This document shows positions 3,879-46,111 of a DNA stretch of 64,000 nucleotides, one piece after another. Made by a program: the position numbers and the translations under genes. Numbering within the stretch: the first letter of the stretch is position 1; each line of letters starts with the position of its first letter. The notes beneath the pieces were generated by a model, which worked only from the letters and a program-made list of their open reading frames with translations, did not search any database and had not been told where the DNA came from. Origin of the DNA: Candidatus Collierbacteria bacterium (GTDB lineage: Bacteria > Patescibacteriota > Microgenomatia > UBA1400 > JACPES01). The stretch is taken from NCBI GenBank assembly GCA_016183365.1, contig JACPES010000002.1, forward strand, positions 93,831 to 157,830, read 5' to 3'.

Positions 3879-4007
3879 GTTATCAGTTCTCGGTTCTCGG
3901 TTATCAGATTTTAGTTAACCGGTTTTCAGTCTGCCAGTTTCAAAACAGGCGAACCGAAAACTGATAAACTTGTAACTGAAAACCGAAAACAGAAAACCGA
4001 TAACCGA
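3879..4007. repeat. long imperfect inverted repeat built from ctcggtt/ccgaaaac words between ybeY and dnaX
   Basis: tatcagttctcggttctcggttatcag ... ctgataaacttgtaactgaaaaccgaaaacagaaaaccgataaccga. The arms are reverse complements with mismatches. It is probably a terminator and/or regulatory structure. Confidence 0.5.
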
Positions 4008-4012
4008 CGCAG

Positions 4013-5485
4013 ATGACATTCTATCTAAAATATCGCCCCAAAACTGTGGAAGAATTGGATTTGGTTAAAGTCAGAGACAGGTTGTCGGGGATAATCAAAA
4101 CGGGTAAATTCGGCCACGCTTATTTGTTTTCCGGTCCCCGCGGAGTCGGAAAAACTTCGGCGGCCAGAATTCTGGCCCGTTTAGCCGGAGCCGAGGGAAT
4201 TGATATTATCGAAATGGACGGGGCCAGCAACCGCGGGATTGACGACGTTCGGGAATTGCGGGAAAAAGTCGGTCTGTCTCCGCTATCGGGAAAACGGAAA
4301 GTCTACATTATCGATGAAGTCCACATGTTGACCGCGGAAGCGTTTAACGCCCTCTTAAAAACTTTGGAAGAACCGCCGGAACACGTCATCTTTTTTCTGT
4401 GCACCACTGAACCGCAAAAACTCCCCAAAACCGTTATCAGCCGTTGTGTCGAAGTTAAATTTGATAAAGCCGCTAATCAGGAAATCATCGATTCGGTTAA
4501 AAGATCTGCAAGGAGCGAAAAATTGGGAATAACCGCGGAAGCTTTGGAAAGAATAGCTAAATCGGCCGATGGCAGTTTCAGGGAGGCCCAAACGATTTTA
4601 GAAGAAGCCGCCGAAATATCAGGATCAAATAAAATTGATATATCGGCAGTAAATTCCGTAATCGGAGTTTCGTTGGATAGTTTGGTAAATGATTATGTTG
4701 AGGCGGTGGTTGCCGGGAAAACTACAATAGCACTCCAAGCGGTAGAAAAATTGCTATCTTCCGGCGGGGACATAATGGCATTTGCCAAAGAAATTCTGGA
4801 AGAAGTCAGAAAGCGGTTGCTTAAAAGTTTTGACGCCAGATTGTTGACGGTGGCTAAAGTTTTGGAAATAAAAATCAGAACCTTAAAATATTCCGTTCTG
4901 CCGCATTTGCCTTTGGAGATTGCGGCGATTGAATTGGGGATGGGAAGGAAAAGCGGAGAGGTTGAGGGGCCCCAAAGTATGCTTGCCACGAGCCAGAGGC
5001 TTCCAGCCTCGCGCTCCCGTGGAGCGCAACTTCGGGGTTCGGATGTACCAACAGATTTTTCTAAGAAGAAAAATCTGGGTCCATCCGAAAAAACCGACAT
5101 AAATAAAGAATCATCCATTATCCATCATTCATCATCCATTAATCTTGATACTTTTAGAAGTCAGTGGCCTCAGTTGCTGACTGAAGTCAGAAAAAAGAAT
5201 CATGGCATCGTTACGTTGCTGTCTTTATGTCGGCCGGTAGAGGTGGAAGGCTCGGCCGTGATTGTCGAAACCGCTTATAAATTCCATATGGAGCAATTAA
5301 ATTTAGACCGATTCAGCCAGATTATTGAACAGACGGCCAAAGATATTTATGGAACTCCGGTTCAATTGAGGTACCGTTTGGCTGACAAAACAGTTGAAAC
5401 ATTGAAAAATAACTCTCTAGATGATAATATTGTGGCGGTTGAAGAAGAATTAAGCGTTTCAGCAGAAGAAATGTTTTTATCATGA
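4013..5485 (+). CDS. dnaX: DNA polymerase III subunit gamma/tau
   Basis: AAA+ clamp-loader motifs GPRGVGKTS and DEVHML and the SRC box (VISRC), followed by a low-complexity linker. Confidence 0.9.
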   Translation: MTFYLKYRPKTVEELDLVKVRDRLSGIIKTGKFGHAYLFSGPRGVGKTSAARILARLAGAEGIDIIEMDGASNRGIDDVRELREKVGLSPLSGKRKVYIIDEVHMLTAEAFNALLKTLEEPPEHVIFFLCTTEPQKLPKTVISRCVEVKFDKAANQEIIDSVKRSARSEKLGITAEALERIAKSADGSFREAQTILEEAAEISGSNKIDISAVNSVIGVSLDSLVNDYVEAVVAGKTTIALQAVEKLLSSGGDIMAFAKEILEEVRKRLLKSFDARLLTVAKVLEIKIRTLKYSVLPHLPLEIAAIELGMGRKSGEVEGPQSMLATSQRLPASRSRGAQLRGSDVPTDFSKKKNLGPSEKTDINKESSIIHHSSSINLDTFRSQWPQLLTEVRKKNHGIVTLLSLCRPVEVEGSAVIVETAYKFHMEQLNLDRFSQIIEQTAKDIYGTPVQLRYRLADKTVETLKNNSLDDNIVAVEEELSVSAEEMFLS

Positions 5486-5745
5486 ATAATCCTTTACAGT
5501 CTCTAGGCGATTTAAACAAGATGCGCCAGCAGGCAATGAAAATGCAACAAGCTCTGCAGGGCAAGCAGATCGCGGTCGAAAAAGGCGATGTCAAGGTGGT
5601 TATCTCCGGGGACCAGAAAATTTTGGAATTTTCGGTTCAGGGTTATTCATCCCAGGACGCGATAGATGCTTTAAATGACGCGATTAAGCAATCTCAAAAG
5701 ATGGCGGCAGAAAAACTAAAAGAGATCGCGGCGGAAATGCAATAA
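5482..5745 (+). CDS. ybaB: nucleoid-associated protein YbaB/EbfC
   Basis: 87-aa ORF overlapping the dnaX stop, in the conserved dnaX-ybaB-recR arrangement. Confidence 0.8.
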   Translation: MNNPLQSLGDLNKMRQQAMKMQQALQGKQIAVEKGDVKVVISGDQKILEFSVQGYSSQDAIDALNDAIKQSQKMAAEKLKEIAAEMQ

Positions 5746-5748
5746 CCT

Positions 5749-5842
5749 GATTTACGATTTATAAATTATGAATTATGAATGAAAGATAAAAAAATTTAAG
5801 AAATGTATTATTCGTAAATCATAAATCATTATTCATAAATCA
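5749..5842. repeat. intergenic repeat element family A, copy 2 (upstream of recR)
   Basis: See copy 1; the 32-bp core is identical. Confidence 0.8.
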
Positions 5843-5850
5843 CCTAATAA

Positions 5851-6462
5851 TTGCGAATTCCCAGAGCTATCTCCGATCTTACCAATCAGTTCGAAAGGCT
5901 TCCCGGCATCGGCCCCAAAACCGCTCAACGCTTAACTTTTTACCTTTTACACGTCCCCCAAAATGTTTTGGATGAATTTTCCAAAGCCGTTGCCGAATTG
6001 AAGCGCGGGACAGTCCAATGTTCTGTTTGTCAAAATGTTGCAGAAGTTGATCCGTGTCCGATTTGCGCCGATTCCGGCCGGGACGATTCGGTTTTAATGG
6101 TGGTTGAACATCCTTTGGATGTTTTTGTGGTAGAACGGGCCGGGGTGTTCGGCGGAGTTTATCACGTCCTCCACGGCTTGATCTCGCCTTTGGAGAACAT
6201 CGGGCCGGATGAATTGTTTATTAAAGAACTGCTTGAGAGGCTGAAAAATGATAAAATACGCGAAATTGTCCTGGGGTTGAATCCGACGATGGAAGGCGAA
6301 GCCACGGCGTTGTATCTGAAAAATAAAATCAACGAGTTACGAGCCATGAACCATGAGCTAAAAATCACTCGTCTCGGCCAAGGAATGCCCACCGGCGGCG
6401 ACATCCAATACGCCGATGAATCAACCCTAAAACAGGCGATGGAAGGAAGAAGGGGGTACTAG
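5851..6462 (+). CDS. recR: recombination protein RecR
   Basis: Helix-hairpin-helix motif LPGIGPKTAQRL, a C4 zinc finger (CSVCQNV...CPIC) and a Toprim region. The start codon is apparently TTG. Confidence 0.9.
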   Translation: MRIPRAISDLTNQFERLPGIGPKTAQRLTFYLLHVPQNVLDEFSKAVAELKRGTVQCSVCQNVAEVDPCPICADSGRDDSVLMVVEHPLDVFVVERAGVFGGVYHVLHGLISPLENIGPDELFIKELLERLKNDKIREIVLGLNPTMEGEATALYLKNKINELRAMNHELKITRLGQGMPTGGDIQYADESTLKQAMEGRRGY

Positions 6463-6463
6463 A

Positions 6464-7039
6464 ATGAAAATATTTTTTAATGCCTCTCTCACCGGAAAAA
6501 AATTATACAAGTCAAATTATCTGGCCATAATCGACCAGTTGGAAAAGCTGGGTCATACCATTATTTCCGCCCCGGTCAAAACCGGAGAGATCACCAAAGT
6601 GGTCCAAGCGTCTCAACAACAAGCTGAAAAATATTACGAAGACTTAATGAAATCAATTGCCGCGGCCGATATTAATGTCTTCGAAGTTTCCTATCCTAGT
6701 ACCGGCATCGGACACGAAATCGCGGTCTCGCTCCACAAGGGTAAACCGGTGATTGCCCTCTACGTTAAGGGTAAAAATCCGTACATTTTTGACAGCGTTA
6801 TCGACGAAAAACTGCAAGTTCTGGAATATCAAATTAACGAACTCGGAACATTACTCAAAGACGCGTTAGAGTATGCAACAGATCAGCAGGACGTTCGTTT
6901 CAATTTCTTTATTTCTCCCAATATCCAGCAGTATCTTGATTGGGTTGCCAAGTATAAACGTACTCCACGTGCGGTCTATCTTCGCGAGCTTTTAGAGAAA
7001 GACATGAGAGAAAACAAAGACTGGAAGAAACAGAAATAA
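6464..7039 (+). CDS. nucleoside 2-deoxyribosyltransferase-like protein
   Basis: PSTGIGHEIAVSLHKGKPVIAL resembles the D.GT..E.G.A.A.GKPV active-site region of the NDT family. Confidence 0.4.
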   Translation: MKIFFNASLTGKKLYKSNYLAIIDQLEKLGHTIISAPVKTGEITKVVQASQQQAEKYYEDLMKSIAAADINVFEVSYPSTGIGHEIAVSLHKGKPVIALYVKGKNPYIFDSVIDEKLQVLEYQINELGTLLKDALEYATDQQDVRFNFFISPNIQQYLDWVAKYKRTPRAVYLRELLEKDMRENKDWKKQK

Positions 7040-7205
7040 GAATGGTTGAAATGGCTAGAAAATTAAAAGGTTAAATTAAATCTTCGATCCAATCCCAACA
7101 TCTGGTCAAAATCAAAGGCAACAAACTTCTATTTGAATCCAAGCATAGAATCTTGCGGGCAATTTAGTTGTAATAGCTTGACTGGGAAGTTAGAATGTTG
7201 CGGAT

Positions 7206-8264
7206 ATGGGATCAAGATTAGAAACGGAATCTGGAGACGGTTTGAGCGATGATAACATAGATATGATAATTTCGGCTTTTCCGATTGCGGTGGTCGGTGA
7301 GTTAATGTCCGAGGGAAATGAAGCCCGGGAGGAAGACGGGGCGGAGGAGGATGTGGGGGATATTGAAGATGTGGGGGATGAAAGGGATGGAGTGGAAATT
7401 TATATTAAACAGGCGGGCCGGACTCCCTTGCTGACGGCCCAGGAGGAGATAGACTTGGCCAAGAGAATGAAAGAAGCTGAATATGCTCGTAAAAAGATGG
7501 CCGAAGGCAACTTGGGTATGGAAAAAAAGAACCAGCTTCAAATAATAATTAATGATGGAGGGGAGGCCGAAGATCATTTGATAAAGGCAAATACCAGGCT
7601 GGTTATTCATATTGCTAAAAAGCATATGGGCCGCGGAGTGCCTTTGCTCGACCTGATCCAAGAAGGGAATATCGGGCTTATTCGGGGGACTAAAAAGTTT
7701 AATTACAGGCGGGGGAATAGATTTGCCACCCATGTTACTTGGTGGATTCGTCAGGCTGTTACCCGGGCTATCGCCGACCAGGCCCGGACTATCCGAATCC
7801 CCGTGGGTAAGATTTATCAAATAAGCAGATTAGCAAAGGTGTCAGATCGGCTGTCTCAGAACTTGGGACGGGATCCACATCAGGAAGAATTAGCACAAGC
7901 ATTGGGAATAAGTGTTAAGAGGGTGGAGAGACTGATGGAAATTGTCCGTCACCCGCTATCCTTGGAAGAACCTATCGGCGGAGATGACGACGAGACTGAA
8001 TTGGGAGATTTTCTTACGGGTGATTCGATCTCTCCAGATGAGGCGGCAAGCCAAAAAATGTTAAGAGAGCGAATAGAAAAAGTTTTCTCAAGCTTGCCTG
8101 CCAGAGAGGTCAAGATACTTCAACTGCGATATGGGTTAAAAGATGGAAAATCTTTTTCCTTGGAGGAAGTGGGGAAGAAGATGGGGATTACGCGGGAGAG
8201 AGTGAGGCAGATTGAGGCGAAGGCTCTGGGCCGGATGCGGGGCTATTTTTCGCAAGAAGATTAG
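7206..8264 (+). CDS. rpoD: RNA polymerase sigma-70 factor (primary sigma)
   Basis: Acidic N-terminal region, region 2 (LDLIQEGNIGLI...FATHVTWWIRQA), region 3 and the region 4 HTH (EEVGKKMGITRERVRQIE). Confidence 0.9.
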   Translation: MGSRLETESGDGLSDDNIDMIISAFPIAVVGELMSEGNEAREEDGAEEDVGDIEDVGDERDGVEIYIKQAGRTPLLTAQEEIDLAKRMKEAEYARKKMAEGNLGMEKKNQLQIIINDGGEAEDHLIKANTRLVIHIAKKHMGRGVPLLDLIQEGNIGLIRGTKKFNYRRGNRFATHVTWWIRQAVTRAIADQARTIRIPVGKIYQISRLAKVSDRLSQNLGRDPHQEELAQALGISVKRVERLMEIVRHPLSLEEPIGGDDDETELGDFLTGDSISPDEAASQKMLRERIEKVFSSLPAREVKILQLRYGLKDGKSFSLEEVGKKMGITRERVRQIEAKALGRMRGYFSQED

Positions 8265-20179: not shown

Positions 20180-20609
20180 TCAAAGCTTTGATGCTGACAA
20201 TAGCCCTAGGGCTGCAGACATGCGTTGTTTTTCATTGCCTAAATCGGTTCGGTTAGAAAGAATAACCACTGTAAGTTTTTCCCGCGGAATTTTCAGGATA
20301 ATGTTTCTAAATCCGGCCCATGATCCGCTCTGATAGATAACTTTTGTTTTAAGTCGTTTTCTAATTAACCAGCTGAATCCTGCTTTGCCAAATTTTCCAT
20401 TTCTCCCGGTTAACCAGAGTTTCTTCGTCCCATGCCCGACTCCACTTGACAATATCTTCGATGTTGGAATAAACTCCTTCGTCTCCAACAATATAATTCA
20501 AGGGATCATAATCACAAAGCCTGAATTTATTTTTTGGCAGTGATTTATAACCTAATGCCAGATTTTTAATTTCCGGTTTTGTTTGATTTAGAACATCGGA
20601 GTTATTCAT
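20180..20609 (-). pseudogene. truncated and frameshifted serine hydrolase / beta-lactamase-family gene (C-terminal half only)
   Basis: Two overlapping frames (20361-20609 and 20180-20491) carry beta-lactamase-family C-terminal features: YSN.EDIVKW, then ..GHGT...SG...VVILSNR. The N-terminal SxxK catalytic part is absent. Confidence 0.5.
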
Positions 20610-20801
20610 TTCTAGCGGCTAAAAAATATTTTTTTTTAAAAATTTCCGATAAGTAATCATTGAAACTTGTTCAATAATTAAAGCCAGTAAAACATATCCA
20701 GCGTCAGAATATTTATATTTACTTCCCGGCGAGAATAGGGGAGTCGGCCGACTTTCCACTACTTTCAAAGCGTCCGTCATTTTTCATCTTTGTATCGCAG
20801 T

Positions 20802-20827
20802 ACTTCAATTATTTAAATAATTGAAGT
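20802..20827. terminator. perfect 13-bp-arm palindrome (acttcaattattt|aaataattgaagt) followed by a T-run
   Basis: Seen directly in the sequence. It lies at the 3' end of the minus-strand pseudogene, so it may act as a bidirectional terminator. Confidence 0.3.
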
Positions 20828-20830
20828 AAT

Positions 20831-21795
20831 TTACTTTTTTTGAATCTCATTTTTCCATTTGTAATACGCTGTCATTTCTTGGTCAGAAATTGGGGTAATA
20901 ACAGAAAGTTGTCCTTGGGCACCGGCAAGAATGGTTTTAGCGACGCGGAATTCTTCAAAATTTACCAAAACTACTCCTTGTTGGTCGTTATCTTTAATAT
21001 CTTTTATAGTCTTTCCTTCTCCGGCATACATGCCGAAATATCTAATCGAAGAATCTTTGATTTCGTTTGGGTCAACCTTTATTTCAATTTGTTGAAAATA
21101 CTCAACTTCTCCGGCTATGATTTCCGGCAGTTGGGCTTGGAAACCAGGCAAGTGATTGGTTTTGGTAATGCCTGGTTTAACTTATCAACGGCCTCGTCAA
21201 CAATCGTTTCCCGCTCTTCTCGTGTCTGCGCATATCTCCAAACTCTTTCTGAGGTCGCTTCGGTTGATGGAATCATGACAATAATTTCTGGATCGCCAAT
21301 TTTAGCTAGTTCTGTTGTCATCTTCTGGATTCTTGGAAGATTGAAAAGAACAATAGATGTTTCCGGTTCGCTCTTGACTTTGCAAACTGGATATTTTCCC
21401 GGAAGATCTTGCTCCCATTCAAACGTGAGGCAGTTCCAAACGATGAAATCCGTGGATTTACCTTGCGAGAATTCCATCAGGTCTTTTGCCAGAAGTTTTT
21501 CGTTTTGTTGCGTATCGTCTGCCTCAAGAATCCAGCGTCTCCGGCGCTGGTTTTTAAGCCAATCGATAAATATTGCCACCTCAGGACTTATTTTTGGCGG
21601 TTTTTCACTGCCGTTTAACGCTCGCTTGATAATTTCTTTTGAATAACGCAGCCCCGTTTGTTGTCGGATTTTTCTCACTGCGATTTTAAACGAGTCCTTG
21701 TCGTTTGGGCTAGCGATAATGGCTTGAGCAGAAAATTCATCCTGCTCTAGCCGCTTAAGAAATGATTGAGAGATTTGTTCTATATTGATTTTCAT
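20831..21795 (-). pseudogene. frameshifted gene of unknown function (two frames: 21115-21795 and 20831-21151)
   Basis: The downstream ORF continues the upstream one after a frame change in the 21115-21151 overlap. No recognisable family. Confidence 0.4.
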
Positions 21796-22702
21796 ATATT
21801 CAGTAATAGATTCTTTTTAAGAATTTTTATTTTTCCACCAATTTCCGCAGAGACTTCTTGTTTCAAATTCTTTACTCTCGCAATCAGCTTTTTGCCAGAT
21901 GGTTGGAGAATAGGAATCTCAAGAGTGTTTTTTGATTGTTTAAAAAACTCTGTCAGAGCAACAGCCGTGGTTCCGCTGGCGCAGGCAGTCTCGTAAAACA
22001 GAGTTTTGATATCGCGGACCCAAACGACAGGATCAATTCTCAATATGTTGCTATCGCGTGAAACAAATATGACTCCGGCAGCCGGAACAGAGAGGGTTAG
22101 GCCAAGTTTTTTGAGGATTTTAAGTCCTTGGAGTTTAATTTCTTCTCTAGAACTACTTATTATGGGCCGATAAGTAATTACTTGGGTGATTCCTTCGAGA
22201 GCTACAATGAAGGTAATCACCGGCCTCTCTGACGTAATCGCGGTTTTTTAATATGGGCATTTGAGCCCAGACCATACTTTGTCGATCGATTCTGGCTTTT
22301 AAGTTTTGGTTTGTCCCGGAAACAGAAATGCTAACCTTCCCCGGTTTTCCTTTAAGGGTTAAAAATGCCGCGCATCTGGTGGCATTGCCGCAAAATTCTC
22401 CTCCTGCCATTACCAGGCGAGTAGGGGAATAGTCAATAAATCCTACTTGTTCGACCATTGAAAATTTGGCCATGATTTTTGTCGTTAATAATTTTTCTTT
22501 CATCAGAAAACCTATTGATTCCTTTGACTAAAGCGGTGATATTCCTGCCGGGATTTAGAATGGTAAGGTTAATTTTTCTGTTCATAGTTTCTTCATTAAA
22601 AACCCCGCTTTTTAGCGGGGTAACACCCAAAACTTCAACACTTGCTCGTGGTGGAGTTTTAGGTTGGCAGCAAAAATGGTCAGCGATTCTTCGTTTCATC
22701 AT
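21792..22702 (-). pseudogene. dapF: diaminopimelate epimerase (DapF)-like gene split over three frames
   Basis: GGEFCGNATRCAAFL (N-domain catalytic Cys) and ETACASGTTAVAL (C-domain catalytic Cys) fall on separate overlapping ORFs (22433-22702, 22153-22503, 21792-22220). Confidence 0.5.
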
Positions 22703-22772
22703 GTTAATACGTTAATTTATCAATACATCACTTTTGAAAATCTTGTCAATAATCAATTTGGCTTTGGAAATC

Positions 22773-22813
22773 ATGTAGATTGACAATGCTATAGCATATC
22801 GAATTTACAAGGT
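22773..22813. repeat. nested palindromic element family D, degenerate copy (catgtagattgacaatgctatagcatatcgaatttacaagg)
   Basis: Shares catgtagatt ... gctatagca with the perfect copy at 39403-39442; the right arm has decayed. Confidence 0.55.
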
Positions 22814-36543: not shown

Positions 36544-36687
36544 TTATATAGATTCCGGGTCCCTCCAGAGGCGGGCAGACGAGCCAGGAATGACAAACGG
36601 ATTCCATGTCAAGCACGGAATGACAAGAGAATATAGGTTCTGAAACTATACTTCCCCGCGATCAGAGTGGGAGACCAATCTATATAG
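36544..36687. repeat. MITE-like element bounded by inverted repeats attatatagattc / aatctatatagt
   Basis: The terminal inverted repeats lie about 130 bp apart. The interior carries ggaatgac words also seen near 28470 and 31930. Confidence 0.45.
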
Positions 36688-36989
36688 TCGCACAATATAT
36701 CTTTTACGACGTTATTCCAATATTGTCCGGAGAAGTGGCAAAGATGTCATTTTCCGCCTTTGGCGGAACTATTTATATAGATTCCGGCCTTCGCGGGAAC
36801 GATAAAATTGTTTTGTCCCCCAACAATTCTCAAGGTCAGCTAATTTTAGCCGCTCCAAAAGTTACCCGAATTTTTAAAGGTATTTATATAACCCCATCTA
36901 TTATCCCCAGAAAGCTTTCTAGGGGCATTCTACGAGGCCGGTTTTTGAAAGCCCATACCTTATAGACGATAGATGGTGGAAAATAAAAG

Positions 36990-37100
36990 GTGGTGATTGA
37001 ATATCGAAAATAGAAGATAGATAGTTTCCATTTTCTATTTTCAATCTTCTAACCCTATCTTCCATCTTTCTATCTTCTATCGTCTTAGAATTTACGAAAG
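36990..37100. repeat. hairpin-rich element (aatagaagatagatag ... ctatcttccatctttctatcttctatc), related to family C
   Basis: Direct and inverted copies of the gaagatag word. Confidence 0.5.
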
Positions 37101-37377: not shown

Positions 37378-38406
37378 ATGAGTGATAATAATTTAAAAGA
37401 AATTGCTGGATTGATCAGTGATTTTTTAGAACATCTGGAAGTAGAGCGCGGTCTATCGTTATTAACTGTTAGGAACTACCGTTTTTGGTTGATGCGATTT
37501 GCTAAATGGTTATCAAATGAATTCCCGGGGAGCCGAGTGGCGGATATCGACTTGGAGAAGATCAGGAAGTTTCGTTTGTGGCTGGGAAGACAAAAAGGCC
37601 GCAGAGGTTCGCAGATGTCGTTGGTAACCCAAGGGTATCACGCCATTGCTTTAAGGAGTCTGTTGAAATGGTGTTCAAAAATGAGTATTCCGGCTCTTAG
37701 CCCGGAAAACATTGATGTTCCCAAAAGCCGTAGCCGGGAATTGTCTTTCTTACTCCCAAGTCAAGTCAGCGATTTATTAAATTCTGCCGGGTACAATTCT
37801 GCACCCGGCCGTGCCGGTCATAGTCTTATACCCGGCCGTGGGATGTACCAGACGGTACGTCCCTGTGCCGATGGAACCAAGCTTAAAGACTTGCGGGACA
37901 GAGCCCTTTTGGAAACGCTTTTTTCAACCGGCCTAAGAGTGTCGGAATTGGTTAAATTGAACCGTGACAAGATTAATCTGGACCGGGGCGAGTTTTCAGT
38001 CATCGGTAAAGGCGGCAGAGCCAGGGTGGTTTATTTGTCGAAAAGAGCCATAGAATGGATAAATAAATATTTTGACAAAAGAAAAGATCATTACCGGCCG
38101 GTATTTATCCGGGTGGGCGGTAAAAAACCGGAAGTGGTTACGCCGGATGAAGAAATGCGCCTGACTCCCCGTTCGGTCCAAAGGCTGGTGGAATATTACC
38201 GGCTTAAATCCGGAGTCCCGATTAAAATTACTCCACATGGTTTGCGTCATTCGTTCGCCACGGATTTACTCCAGGGCGGAGCGGATCTGAGGGCCGTTCA
38301 AGAATTATTAGGGCATAAAAATATTGCCACCACCCAAATTTACACTCACGTCACTAACAGGGAATTAAGAGAAGTCCACCAGCGGGCCCATAGTGGGAAC
38401 AGATAA
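37378..38406 (+). CDS. xerC: tyrosine site-specific recombinase (XerC/XerD-like) with a roughly 45-aa linker insertion
   Basis: Box I (RDRALLETLFSTGLRVSEL) and box II (HGLRHSFATDLLQGGADLRAVQELLGHKNIATTQIYTHV) supply the R...H-R-H...Y catalytic residues. Confidence 0.85.
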   Translation: MSDNNLKEIAGLISDFLEHLEVERGLSLLTVRNYRFWLMRFAKWLSNEFPGSRVADIDLEKIRKFRLWLGRQKGRRGSQMSLVTQGYHAIALRSLLKWCSKMSIPALSPENIDVPKSRSRELSFLLPSQVSDLLNSAGYNSAPGRAGHSLIPGRGMYQTVRPCADGTKLKDLRDRALLETLFSTGLRVSELVKLNRDKINLDRGEFSVIGKGGRARVVYLSKRAIEWINKYFDKRKDHYRPVFIRVGGKKPEVVTPDEEMRLTPRSVQRLVEYYRLKSGVPIKITPHGLRHSFATDLLQGGADLRAVQELLGHKNIATTQIYTHVTNRELREVHQRAHSGNR

Positions 38407-38441
38407 GAGGAAAACTTAATATGCAAAACGAAAATTATAAT

Positions 38442-38479
38442 ATGTAGAATAACTCTGCTATAGCATAGTAAAACTACAT
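38442..38479. promoter_or_regulatory. nested palindrome family D copy (atgtagaataactctgctatagcatagtaaaactacat) about 70 bp upstream of the PaaX-family gene
   Basis: atgtag/ctacat arms around the palindromic tgctatagca core. Candidate operator. Confidence 0.5.
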
Positions 38480-38548
38480 ATTCTAGAATATTGAATAATT
38501 AGAATGGATGTTAATGGACGTTAAATGCAAGGTTAGGATAATTCGAAA

Positions 38549-39409
38549 ATGAATAGAGAAAAGTCAATTCGCGATACGCATCGGCTGGTGAAAGAAATCA
38601 GTCTGGGAGTTTGTGGAAATCTGGTTGACATTACCCTCTTTTTGGTATGTTTTGCGGGCGGATATATTTTAAGCAGTATGAATACTTCTAAGGGAAGAGT
38701 TAATTTGGAGCCTTTAAAGATTTTGCTCAAGGAATATCCTCAATTGAGATTAAAGCTTAGGAATGTTTTGCGTTTGGCTAAAAGAGATGGATTGATAGAT
38801 GGCGATGATGGATTGACCAGCGCTGGATTTAATAAATTAAACGAAATATTGCCCAAGATAAAACGGTGGCCTAAATGGTCAGGATCTTTATGGTTGATAA
38901 CTTATGATGTGAGCGAAAAAAGGAAAAAGGATCGGGAGATATTTCGCCGATTTTTACTTGATCAGGGATATGGGAAACTGCAGGATTCTGTTTATGTGTC
39001 TCCGTTTGATCCAACCAGATTAGTTAGGAGTGAAATAGAAAAAAGACAGTTCAGAGGAGAAGTGATTGTCTCTAAAATGGGAGTAGATGGACATATCGGA
39101 GAAATGTCGGTAAAAGAGTTAATATCCAAAGTTTACGATTTGGAATCAATTTCAGTTGATTATCTATCATATGTTCAAAGTGTTTCTGGAGACTTCCCGC
39201 TGGAAAAGGCTCCATTCTTATTTTTGGAATATTTGTCTATATTAAAATCAGATCCTCAATTGCCGGAAGAACTTTTGCCGGTTGACTGGCCGGGAAAAAA
39301 AGCTTTTGAACTGACAAATAAGAAATTACTCCCCTATTTACAGCATGATAAAAGAATTGAAGATTTGGTGTTAAGGAATATAAATATTTACAGTTTAAAA
39401 ACCATGTAG
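38549..39409 (+). CDS. PaaX-family transcriptional regulator-like protein
   Basis: WLITYDVSEKRKKDREIFRRFLLDQGYGKLQDSVYVSP aligns to E. coli PaaX WLLLLSEGLDKSTLADVKKQLIWQGFGALAPSLMASP. C-terminal DPQLPEELLPVDWPGKK aligns to PaaX DPLLPEELLPAHWAGH. The mid-region has a superficial Cas2-like (L.TYDVS) look. Confidence 0.65.
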   Translation: MNREKSIRDTHRLVKEISLGVCGNLVDITLFLVCFAGGYILSSMNTSKGRVNLEPLKILLKEYPQLRLKLRNVLRLAKRDGLIDGDDGLTSAGFNKLNEILPKIKRWPKWSGSLWLITYDVSEKRKKDREIFRRFLLDQGYGKLQDSVYVSPFDPTRLVRSEIEKRQFRGEVIVSKMGVDGHIGEMSVKELISKVYDLESISVDYLSYVQSVSGDFPLEKAPFLFLEYLSILKSDPQLPEELLPVDWPGKKAFELTNKKLLPYLQHDKRIEDLVLRNINIYSLKTM

Positions 39410-39442
39410 ATTTGATTTGCTATAGCAGAGTCAATCTACATG
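39403..39442. repeat. nested palindrome family D, perfect copy (catgtagatt-tgatttgctatagcagagtc-aatctacatg) overlapping the PaaX-family gene stop codon
   Basis: 10-bp perfect inverted arms. The gene's ATG-TAG stop is part of the left arm. Confidence 0.7.
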
Positions 39443-39504: not shown

Positions 39505-39834
39505 TTAGGAAATTCTGTCGACGTGAAGTTTTACCGCCGAAGAAATTGCATCGGAAACTATTGTTTCGGCAACATCAGCCACGCAAACTTCGAAAAAATC
39601 AAAACCAGCTTGAGCGCAAAACTGCCGGAAAGTTGCTAATTCATCTTTTGGAGCTTGATCTTTTTCTCTTAACCTATTTACCGTCCAGAGATAATTGGTC
39701 ACACTTTCTGTTCCGTGATCGACTGCCATCGTGGTTAACAGACTGGCCGCTTTTTGATTATCATTGAGGGCAAACAAAATATCATATGCCGCCATGGCCG
39801 TGATTCCGGGATATGCAACTAATTTTTCAGCCAA
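39505..39834 (-). CDS. hypothetical protein (possibly the 3' part of a frameshifted gene continuing from 39835-39927)
   Basis: The 109-aa ORF opens with TTG. An upstream short ORF MKPIELFRQICSFSRSGRTIDNLRLQREK runs into it with a 1-nt frame change. Confidence 0.25.
   Translation of the reverse strand: MAEKLVAYPGITAMAAYDILFALNDNQKAASLLTTMAVDHGTESVTNYLWTVNRLREKDQAPKDELATFRQFCAQAGFDFFEVCVADVAETIVSDAISSAVKLHVDRIS

Positions 39835-43207: not shown

Positions 43208-43210
<3 letters not shown>
43152..43210 (-). promoter_or_regulatory. upstream element family B copy (directly 5' of ppa, overlapping the gyrB stop)
   Basis: The reverse complement reads atccgaattatccgaattctattcgtagcattcggatgaattcgtagattaggatagc, about 25 nt upstream of the ppa ATG. 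Confidence 0.6.
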
Positions 43211-45259
<2,049 letters not shown>

Positions 45260-45343: not shown

Positions 45344-46111
45344 TTATTTCTTAGGAATATCCAGGACGAACTGCTGCAGGGCCAGCTGGACGTTGAGGTT
45401 GTTTTTTAGGCGGCGGTGGGATAAACAAGCTGCTACTAGGCAGTTTGTTATTGAGCGTTGAGCGTTGAGCGTTGAGCGTTGAAGGCCAGGAGTTGAATAC
45501 TGAAGAAGTGCCTGATGCAAGTTGACAATGATATTTTCCATAAATTTCAGGGCATCGGGGCGTAGGATAGTACTTTGATACGGAGAGAATTTTTTGGCGG
45601 AAAATTCGGATAGCAAGTCGTAAAGAATAGTTAATTTTTCAGACGGTGATTTATTCCCAATTTCTGTCAAACTATGTAGAATGCCCATGCTATAGCTTGT
45701 TGAATCTACATTGGTTGCTGACGCTTCGGTGGGTAATCTGATAATCTTGCATCTTGACCTGATGGTCGGTAGCAGTGAAGATTCTGAATCAGCAATTAGA
45801 ATAATATAGTTATTTTCTCCGGGTTCTTCCAGAATTTTTAATATTGCGTGTTGGGCCGGAATGGTTAAGGTTTGGGCCTGATGGATAATTACCGCCCGCT
45901 GGTCGATTGTCTTTTGCGACAACCAGTTAGTAATAAACCTGACGTCTTCAATCGTTAATGTTGGAATTTTCGAGGCAGCTTTAGCCGAAGGATTCAAGTC
46001 CAGCCTATTTTTCGGCTCAATCCTGCCGATACCCAGGCGGGTACCGGGCAGATCTTCAACCCGTTCCTCTACCCTATTTTGATTTTGGCCACAAACTATG
46101 AATGCGTGCAT
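45344..46111 (-). CDS. holB: DNA polymerase III delta-prime subunit-like (clamp loader)
   Basis: IILIADSESSLLPTIRSRC (the SRC motif) within AAA+-like architecture. Confidence 0.7.
   Translation of the reverse strand: MHAFIVCGQNQNRVEERVEDLPGTRLGIGRIEPKNRLDLNPSAKAASKIPTLTIEDVRFITNWLSQKTIDQRAVIIHQAQTLTIPAQHAILKILEEPGENNYIILIADSESSLLPTIRSRCKIIRLPTEASATNVDSTSYSMGILHSLTEIGNKSPSEKLTILYDLLSEFSAKKFSPYQSTILRPDALKFMENIIVNLHQALLQYSTPGLQRSTLNAQRSITNCLVAACLSHRRLKNNLNVQLALQQFVLDIPKK
45451..45478. repeat. 7-bp x4 tandem repeat (ttgagcg) inside holB
   Basis: ttgagcgttgagcgttgagcgttgagcg, then ttgaagg. It encodes STLNAQRSTLNAQ-like residues on the minus strand. Confidence 0.8.

Follow-up and report, generated by a model that had tools for sequence, protein, structure and literature searches.

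A gene for a PaaX-family, Cas2-like protein of Candidatus Collierbacteria was found bracketed at both ends by a 40-bp nested palindrome, which is very probably the cognate DNA recognition site of the protein that it encloses. The gene lies in a 64,000-nucleotide stretch of contig JACPES010000002.1, called here the window, and the whole palindrome (outer arms, spacers, and core) is referred to as element E. The assignment is drawn from comparative sequence analysis: E was present at every homologous locus examined, its arms track the clade of the protein, and its geometry is like that of the operator of PaaX. We consider it likely that the protein binds E, whereas the complete statement, in which E is the cognate site, its upstream copy an autorepressing operator, and its other copies extra sites, is favoured on balance.

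Element E in the window and at homologous loci

Four copies of E, with the consensus yATGTAGAwT-N5-TGCTATAGCA-N5-AwTCTACAT, were found in the window:

38441–38480: upstream (5') E, TATGTAGAAT-aactc-TGCTATAGCA-tagta-AAACTACATA, 34 nt past the stop of a xerC-like gene and 68 nt ahead of the ATG at 38549
39403–39442: downstream (3') E, CATGTAGATT-tgatt-TGCTATAGCA-gagtc-AATCTACATG, with perfect 10-bp arms 20 bp apart
22772–22811: solitary E, CATGTAGATT-gacaa-TGCTATAGCA-tatcg-AATTTACAAG
45673–45712: solitary E within a holB-like open reading frame (ORF), TATGTAGAAT-gccca-TGCTATAGCT-tgttg-AATCTACATT, encoding NVDSTSYSMGILH

The initial annotation had reported three of them, all of which are real and had been placed to within 1 base, but had missed the copy at 45673. 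It had rightly described the 3' copy as perfect and as including the stop of the gene, since the TAG codon (39407–39409) falls within the left arm, and a related copy about 70 bp upstream of the same gene was also found where it had been proposed.

With at most one mismatch, the core occurs four times in the window against 0.87 expected, and none of 100 shuffled sequences gave four, so that a chance origin of these copies is excluded. When the window was scanned with the 28-position consensus, the four copies showed 0–2 mismatches and the next best site 8, which is the level of shuffled sequence. The arm 10-mer by itself is not over-represented in the window; thus, the whole composite element is the unit.

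The comparison set comprised 17 non-redundant loci with homologues at 32–100% identity to the window protein; a metagenome scan for homologues returned only three loci, and the remaining ones were obtained by exact-protein look-ups. In all 17, wherever the contig leaves the flank readable, a nested palindrome abuts the gene both upstream and at the stop. No orthologous or paralogous locus examined lacked it; absence from orthologous loci is what the initial annotation had named as a reason to give up its proposal. In the relatives, the upstream element ends 4–33 nt before the start codon, the window being the exception with its 68 nt, and the start of the downstream element ranges from 30 nt ahead of the ORF end to 5 nt past it. 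The architecture and length of the element (40–44 bp) are kept, while the arms differ between protein clades:

At least 73% identity (several loci): arms TGTAGAwT, core GCTATAGC
About 62% identity (L019, L022): arms TGTAAACT and TGTAGAAT, core GCTATAGC
51–54% identity (L020, L023): unequal arms TTGTATAC and TTGGATAAC, core GCTATAGC
49% identity (L021): arms TGTATACTCC, core GATATAGC, a single change from the usual core
41% identity (L025): arms CGCTAAAA, core TGCTATAGCA
37% identity (L024): arms CTGAAAyT, core GCTATAGC
32% identity (L026): arms AACGACAAATG, core TCACGGCCGTGA

In parallel with the arms, the putative recognition helix of the protein shifts as well (LRNALHLAKR, VRDALHMAKR, IERAFFSLKK, IRQSFAYLKR, IQRAMLHARR). 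The core GCTATAGC is retained, with one base changed in L021, except in the most remote clade, where TCACGGCCGTGA takes its place; being constant down to 37% identity and replaced at 32%, it is family-specific and not a generic signal. Across all the DNA examined, 43 of the 44 GCTATAGC octamers lie within such an element. The spacing of the arms is also similar, with TGTAGA-N24-TCTACA in the window clade and equivalents of N22 to N26 in remote clades. Loci L019 and L022 carry two to three tandem copies upstream and two downstream, with a 44-bp period, and at loci with unequal arms the flanking copies are mirror images, with the same arm type distal on both sides.

In most loci, sigma-70-like −35/−10 matches overlap the distal arm of the upstream E (for instance, TTGTCA-16-TAGAAT in L018 and TTGAAG-17-AATAAT in L016), which as consensus matches only are weak evidence.

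Two ways of reading E itself as a promoter were discarded. The core TGCTATAGCA does not qualify as a universal extended −10 element, as its TATAGC lacks the final T, it is equally conserved at the stop-codon and intragenic copies, and a different palindrome is found in the 32% clade. Nor do the arm plus spacer (TTGACT/TTGACA) and the core form a −35/−10 pair, their spacing being merely 3–4 bp.

As a single strand, E pairs into an outer and a short inner stem, separated by a 5x5 internal loop, and its fold is more stable than those of shuffled controls (z = −2 to −7). This folding, the position of many copies 5–35 nt past stop codons, and the ribonuclease activity of some Cas2 and VapD proteins would agree with a role of E as an RNA hairpin in the termination, stabilisation, or processing of transcripts (the Cas2-like domain being possibly an RNase), or else with a selfish palindromic repeat without a dedicated protein. 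However, the arms and core are conserved as sequence, whereas in most copies the 5-nt spacers show neither conservation nor complementarity. T-tracts are missing after the copies, and a terminator scan found nothing there either; this pattern fits protein recognition of DNA and not a hairpin terminator, and on these data a generic intrinsic terminator was discarded. In addition, the asymmetric variants are mirror-imaged, so that a single transcript would contain two different RNA forms of E, and a strict tie to one gene family with co-varying arms is unexpected of a generic repeat. A known RNA family was discarded too, as no Rfam family matched E and a single tRNA was the only Rfam match in the window. 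An RNA hairpin or a selfish repeat is, in our judgement, the least probable of the explanations considered here.

The bracketed protein and its probable mode of recognition

The gene enclosed by the 5' and 3' copies is the following:

38549–39409, + strand: PaaX-family/Cas2-like gene, encoding 286 aa

Its product consists of an N-terminal helix-turn-helix-like region, a Cas2-like middle domain with an aspartate of the Cas2 type (D120), and a PaaX_C domain. Membership in the PaaX family, proposed by the initial annotation, is borne out by profile and structural matches. The protein reached 45.4 bits with Pfam PaaX_M (PF20803, the central Cas2-like domain; cut-off 24) and 30.1 bits with PaaX_C (PF08223; cut-off 22), and the DPQLP...W motif of the C-terminal domain is conserved. 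A profile built from 20 homologues matched E. coli W PaaX (PDB 8a39) over residues 43–256 with an E-value of 3e-8, in an alignment that takes in the helix-turn-helix region (from residue 30), and the top Foldseek matches of the AlphaFold model were 8a39 (281 aligned columns), Rv0674 (3kfw), and the Jannaschia PaaX 3l09, followed by many Cas2 structures. The relationship to Cas2 is also apparent in the NCBI annotation, which names the protein Cas2, in the NCBIfam model TIGR01573 (cas2), passed with 27 bits for a cut-off of 24.5, and in a Pfam Cas2 match slightly under its cut-off. Since TIGR02277, the NCBIfam equivalog model of PaaX, gave 59.3 bits, far below its cut-off of 264.55, the protein belongs, as judged by these family matches, to the PaaX family as a distant member and is distinct from the phenylacetate regulator.

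The subfamily is large, with 106 clusters (50% identity) at E-values up to 1e-30 and 507 up to 1e-10, and has been seen so far in uncultured Patescibacteria-type (candidate phyla radiation, CPR) contigs. Of 139 subfamily representatives, 135 retain D120, and the equivalent residue is absent from the three classical PaaX-family sequences compared (E. coli PaaX, the aligned segment of Rv0674, and P0043). Among the called neighbours of the 14 related loci with gene tables, neither paa-type Pfam families nor Cas1 families were found, and in the window the neighbours are xer, gyrA, and one gene of unknown family, with no paa genes. A phage or defence origin was discarded: viral contigs yielded neither a homologue of the protein nor a copy of E, and the Cas2 models of PADLOC match the Cas2 domain only.

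The closest known system to the protein and E is PaaX with its operator. In E. coli, this operator is TGATTC-N27-GAATCA, and a site is located at the regulator's own promoter, Px (PMC9493321). PaaX of E. coli and Pseudomonas has the same fold and domain order, with a helix-turn-helix region, a Cas2-like dimerisation domain, and PaaX_C; its operator and E both present two short inverted half-sites about three helical turns apart (N27 in the former, TGTAGA-N24-TCTACA in the latter); and in both cases a site lies at the promoter region of the regulator, which for the upstream E is a prediction. In contrast, the window protein is not an orthologue of PaaX and has no paa genes nearby, and its subfamily keeps the Cas2-type aspartate that E. 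coli PaaX and the aligned segment of Rv0674 lack. E also differs from the PaaX operator in its strongly conserved central palindrome and in that it brackets the gene at both ends, can be tandem, and occurs inside ORFs. With the Cas2 of CRISPR adaptation, the protein shares the fold of its middle domain and the N-terminal strand motif L-I-T-Y-D ... Q-D-S-V, but here the domain is fused to a DNA-binding region and PaaX_C, cas1 is missing from the neighbourhoods with gene tables, and the loci hold no repeat-spacer array, E being either single or tandem with 4-bp linkers and no spacers. A literature search on PaaX with Cas2, CPR palindromes, and the core sequence found no description of E or of the target of the subfamily.

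From the observed anatomy, conservation, co-variation, and fold, we infer the binding, dimer geometry, and regulatory outcome as follows. The protein would bind E as a dimer, as PaaX does, with two N-terminal winged-helix domains reading the outer arms, the centres of whose TGTAGA and TCTACA are 30 bp apart, and with the central Cas2-like dimer sitting over the core palindrome TGCTATAGCA. Half-sites about three helical turns apart would fit a dimer whose DNA-binding domains are spaced by the Cas2-like dimerisation domain, and a central dimer over the core would explain why the latter is as conserved as the arms and is itself altered over long evolutionary distances. Because the upstream E leaves no promoter room before the ATG and overlaps the best hexamers, its occupancy should shut off the transcription of the gene, an autorepression like that at the Px promoter of E. 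coli. In this scheme, the stop-codon copy and the handful of solitary ones would serve as additional operators, roadblocks, or looping partners.

PaaX-like proteins of CPR bacteria have had no known function or target; the probable target can now be read from comparative sequence alone, and the clade-specific arms constitute a natural specificity series, which makes the target question directly testable. In addition, a large subfamily with an aspartate of the Cas2 active-site type may illustrate the evolution of a transcription factor from a Cas2-fold protein, or it may still be an enzyme.

Solitary copies of the element

A one-genome-per-species scan for strict matches to E detected it in one other genome only, the Candidatus Collierbacteria metagenome-assembled genome (MAG) JACRNH01, at no fewer than 8 places on 8 contigs. 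Both solitary copies of the window have syntenic counterparts there, with flanks about 75% identical. The copy at 22772, located 7 nt 3' of the stop of a yerC-like ORF and upstream of a dapF-like gene (both ORFs on the − strand), corresponds to that of locus L006, and the copy at 45673, located 444 nt upstream of the gyrB start, to that of L007, which is also within holB. The contexts of E in JACRNH01 are varied, including a position 27 nt past the stop of an ORF resembling an IS30-family transposase, one upstream of two small ORFs resembling a toxin-antitoxin pair (both resemblances judged by eye), others between co-directional genes, between divergent genes in a ribosomal-protein cluster, and between convergent genes, and one inside an ORF for a 651-aa membrane protein. 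Altogether, the dispersed copies of this MAG (at least 8) include two inside ORFs and three between convergent genes, and several of them are near-perfect 40-bp palindromes, with GACTC and GAGTC as spacers. A placement of E close to the contig ends of JACRNH01 was considered and discarded, since the loci are fixed tiles of 8 kb, within which the position of E carries no information on contig ends. Occurrence at loci unrelated to the regulator, which the initial annotation had named as an argument against its proposal, is thus touched upon by the two solitary copies of the window and those of JACRNH01, but the strict association with one protein family and the co-varying arms speak against a generic repeat.

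The ORF that hosts the copy at 45673 is the following:

45344–46111, − strand: holB-like gene (DNA polymerase III delta'), a 255-aa ORF

It matched the holB domain model TIGR00678 with 77 bits (E-value of 1e-21), below the family cut-off of 180.6. In a comparison of the window with L007, all 6 conserved codons of the arms and core are identical and keep the E consensus (6 of 6 synonymous sites), against 58% elsewhere in the gene (p about 0.04, with two species only). The motif encoded by E, VDSxSYSxxxL(H/Q), is present in 11 of 15 holB orthologues of the Collierbacteria type and lost in four; in L027, GGGACAA-type repeats replace it, with a possible remnant of the right arm. The retention of the consensus and the persistence of the motif count in favour of E as a recognition site. 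In remoter delta' proteins, the E segment falls at a gap of 7–9 residues.

Other features were observed in the surroundings of the solitary copies. Within the holB-like ORF, a tandem (GAGCGTT)x4 at 45440–45475 lies in a segment of variable length among the orthologues. The gyrB gene (3915–7214, 1099 aa) of L027, a related groundwater contig, carries an intein (Intein_splicing) that is absent from the gyrB of the window (43208–45229, 673 aa). In both the window (22153–22702) and L006 (405–1203), two overlapping ORFs make up the dapF-like gene, with the break at a similar position, so that the split is either real and conserved, as a frameshift or two genes, or an assembly feature shared by both. 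Beside dapF, a 356-aa ORF of JACRNH01 (L006 1200–2270) corresponds to fragments of 226 and 106 aa at 20300–21800 of the window, which agrees with the decay zone described in the initial annotation.

Gene-content change between the recombinase gene and gyrA

The gene and its bracket lie between two further features of the window:

37378–38406, + strand: XerC/XerD-like tyrosine recombinase gene, directly upstream of the 5' E and the PaaX/Cas2-like gene
39505–39834, − strand: variable-slot gene F9, 109 aa without family match, between the 3' E and gyrA

The recombinase, placed next to the PaaX-like gene by the initial annotation also, matched Phage_integrase with 134 bits and the XerD and XerC models with about 226 bits, below their equivalog cut-offs. 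Its linkage to the gene was found in 8 of the 8 Collierbacteria-type loci long enough to show it, but this neighbourhood is syntenic throughout (YebC, DUF5656, a gap, Xer, ..., gyrA), and a block kept as such does not make the Xer linkage independent evidence. Beyond Collierbacteria the linkage did not hold: in the three remote homologues (L024, L025, L026) no tyrosine recombinase was found within about 10 kb on the sides available, the contexts being type IV secretion-like genes, a nusA-infB-pnp cluster, and sortase genes. As these homologues keep the bracket without Xer, E goes with the PaaX/Cas2-like gene.

The gene that occupies the interval from the 3' E to gyrA varies among the relatives, some of which have none there. 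In the window and L009, F9 sits on the right-hand side of the 3' E, and in L011 on the left-hand side of the 5' E, between two copies of E. A cassette [F12-F8-E] is present in L016 and absent in L009, and in L011 the two-gene block of a cassette [F25-F9-E] is inserted between two identical copies of E. Some variable genes lack E on at least one side. The elements mark sites of gene-content change beside gyrA in Collierbacteria, although these cassette changes could equally stem from passive homologous recombination between 40-bp repeats, and they bear on how the very small genomes of this group exchange genes.

A tyrosine recombinase beside palindromic sites that bound variable genes recalls the Xer/dif, pdif, and attC systems. 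E could then be the recombination site of the neighbouring XerC/XerD-like enzyme, with the genes between copies of E as its cassettes and the PaaX-like gene as one of these or as an accessory factor. Folded attC sites are laid out as R box, spacer, and L box, which the single-strand fold of E loosely resembles, and the unit is inverted in one clade, as a recombination site would allow, apart from the linkage in Collierbacteria and the variable gene content already described. However, this explanation leaves without account the bracket of the remote homologues and the arms that co-vary with the PaaX-like protein. The layout also differs: E has 10-bp arms 20 bp apart around a 10-bp palindrome, whereas dif has 11-bp arms around a 6–8-bp centre, and GTTRRRY boxes, looked for in E, were not present. 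In addition, several sites per chromosome, one of them in an essential gene, would make Xer-type recombination hazardous, the GC skew gives no terminus in the window, and several variable genes are not flanked by E on either side or on one of them. We regard an Xer site as very unlikely.

A replication origin or terminus signal, considered because the arms resemble DnaA boxes and the XerD arm of dif, was discarded, as the GC skew is uniformly positive across the window and the arms are entirely different in other clades.

Recognition of E by the bracketed protein, which the initial annotation had put forward as a candidate operator function, is supported by the occurrence of E at all loci examined, the co-varying arms, and the geometry. 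Nevertheless, several observations weigh against our interpretation of E as an operator. A simple autoregulated repressor would not normally have a copy right at the stop codon in all lineages, tandem arrays with a 44-bp period, or mirror-image flanks (seen in L011, L014, L018, L020, L023, and L024); these features are more reminiscent of the terminal repeats of a mobile or recombining unit. Only about 5 of the 12 copies in the window and JACRNH01, counting the gene-flanking pair, are at promoter-like positions, while three are inside ORFs and three or four between convergent genes. Cassettes bounded by E were gained, lost, or moved between relatives, and the entire E-gene-E unit has the opposite orientation, with respect to gyrA and Xer, in the 49–54% clade. 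Regarding the protein, its subfamily retains a catalytic-type aspartate of Cas2, which the three classical PaaX-family sequences compared do not have, and the N-terminal domain has no match to Pfam PaaX_N and is modelled at low confidence: the AlphaFold model is confident from residue 110 on only, with residues 54–90 as a helix-helix-hairpin at a predicted local distance difference test score (pLDDT) below 60. A plain operator fails to explain the stop-codon copy, the mirror flanks, the tandem arrays, the intragenic copies, and the cassette changes.

These features would be better accommodated if E and the gene were a domesticated DNA-transaction unit, similar to an insertion sequence (IS) or to repetitive extragenic palindromes (REP) with their REP-associated tyrosine transposase (RAYT). 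The protein would still bind E, but its Cas2-fold domain would nick or cut the core or recruit recombination, and the copies would be terminal repeats and dispersed solo sites seeding rearrangements instead of operators. In insertion sequences, terminal inverted repeats overlap the promoter and stop codon of the encoded enzyme; likewise, E abuts the start and stop of a single ORF of about 850 bp, with mirror-image ends and promoter-like hexamers overlapping the upstream repeat. REP/RAYT systems consist of a single-copy chromosomal gene flanked by inverted palindromes of 30–40 nt, which are also dispersed as solo or clustered copies, mostly at gene ends, and here too the gene is flanked by inverted copies of a dispersed palindrome. 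The tight bracket in the relatives (upstream E 4–33 nt before the ATG, downstream E at the stop) points in the same direction, as do the solo copies inside ORFs or between convergent genes, the position of the holB copy in a stretch of about 9 residues that is specific to the clade and missing from remoter delta' proteins, the presence or absence of both cassettes, the change of side of F9, the inversion of the unit, the two identical copies around an extra two-gene block in L011, and the conservation of the Cas2-type aspartate across the subfamily.

Against such a unit, the gene is found at one chromosomal place (xer ... gyrA) over 49–100% identity, with one copy per locus, and the loci compared show no sign of recent transposition. 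Unlike an insertion sequence, it has no transposase fold, and neither target-site duplications nor multiple copies of the unit were seen. Unlike a RAYT, the enclosed protein is no HUH/Y1 (IS200/IS605-like) transposase, the PaaX and Cas2 families being its only matches, and E would amount to about ten copies per genome, not hundreds, as judged by four copies in 64 kb and at least 8 strict matches in one MAG. Moreover, a genome of only about 75% identity has both solitary copies of the window in syntenic positions, one of them maintained inside an essential gene; neither phage relatives of the protein nor phage copies of E were found in viral contigs; and 40-bp repeats could give the same rearrangements passively. 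To our knowledge, no Cas2-fold protein is known to mobilise DNA by itself. We therefore hold a domesticated DNA-transaction unit to be unlikely, and its more specific form, in which the subfamily combines a helix-turn-helix with a catalytically competent Cas2 fold that acts on its own palindromes by cutting the core, to be slightly more doubtful. Cutting at the core would explain the terminal-repeat layout, the solo copies in genes such as holB, and the gain, loss, and inversion of cassettes, and, if true, would represent a new kind of site-specific DNA enzyme with a Cas2 fold, functionally linking Cas2 to the PaaX regulators. Recognition of E as the cognate site of the bracketed protein is common to this possibility and to the operator that we favour.

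Additional sequence features were found around the cassettes and the recombinase gene. Pieces of about 25 nt like the 3' end of gyrA (tcttcyttctcaatcgt...) lie 35–60 bp to the left of several upstream copies of E (L011 6233–6284 and 8276–8345; L014 9880–9949; L016 2044–2113 and 2913–2982), and a remnant of the 3' end of gene F7 lies to the left of another copy, as filler at the cassette borders. The xerC-like gene of the window shows an in-frame, G+C-rich insertion of 81 bp (about 37789–37869; 27 aa, GYNSAPGRAGHSLIPGRGMYQTVRPC), located between the N-terminal and catalytic domains and absent from orthologues of 311–315 aa. Finally, in the gene-poor gap of about 1.1 kb upstream of this gene, a 53-bp stretch (36544–36596) matches L001 1781–1833 at 90%, and a separate imperfect hairpin of 122 nt (36964–37085), without a match in Rfam, has a counterpart about 72% similar in JACRNH01 (L003 1516–1643); the hairpin may represent another repeat family or an RNA that lacks annotation.

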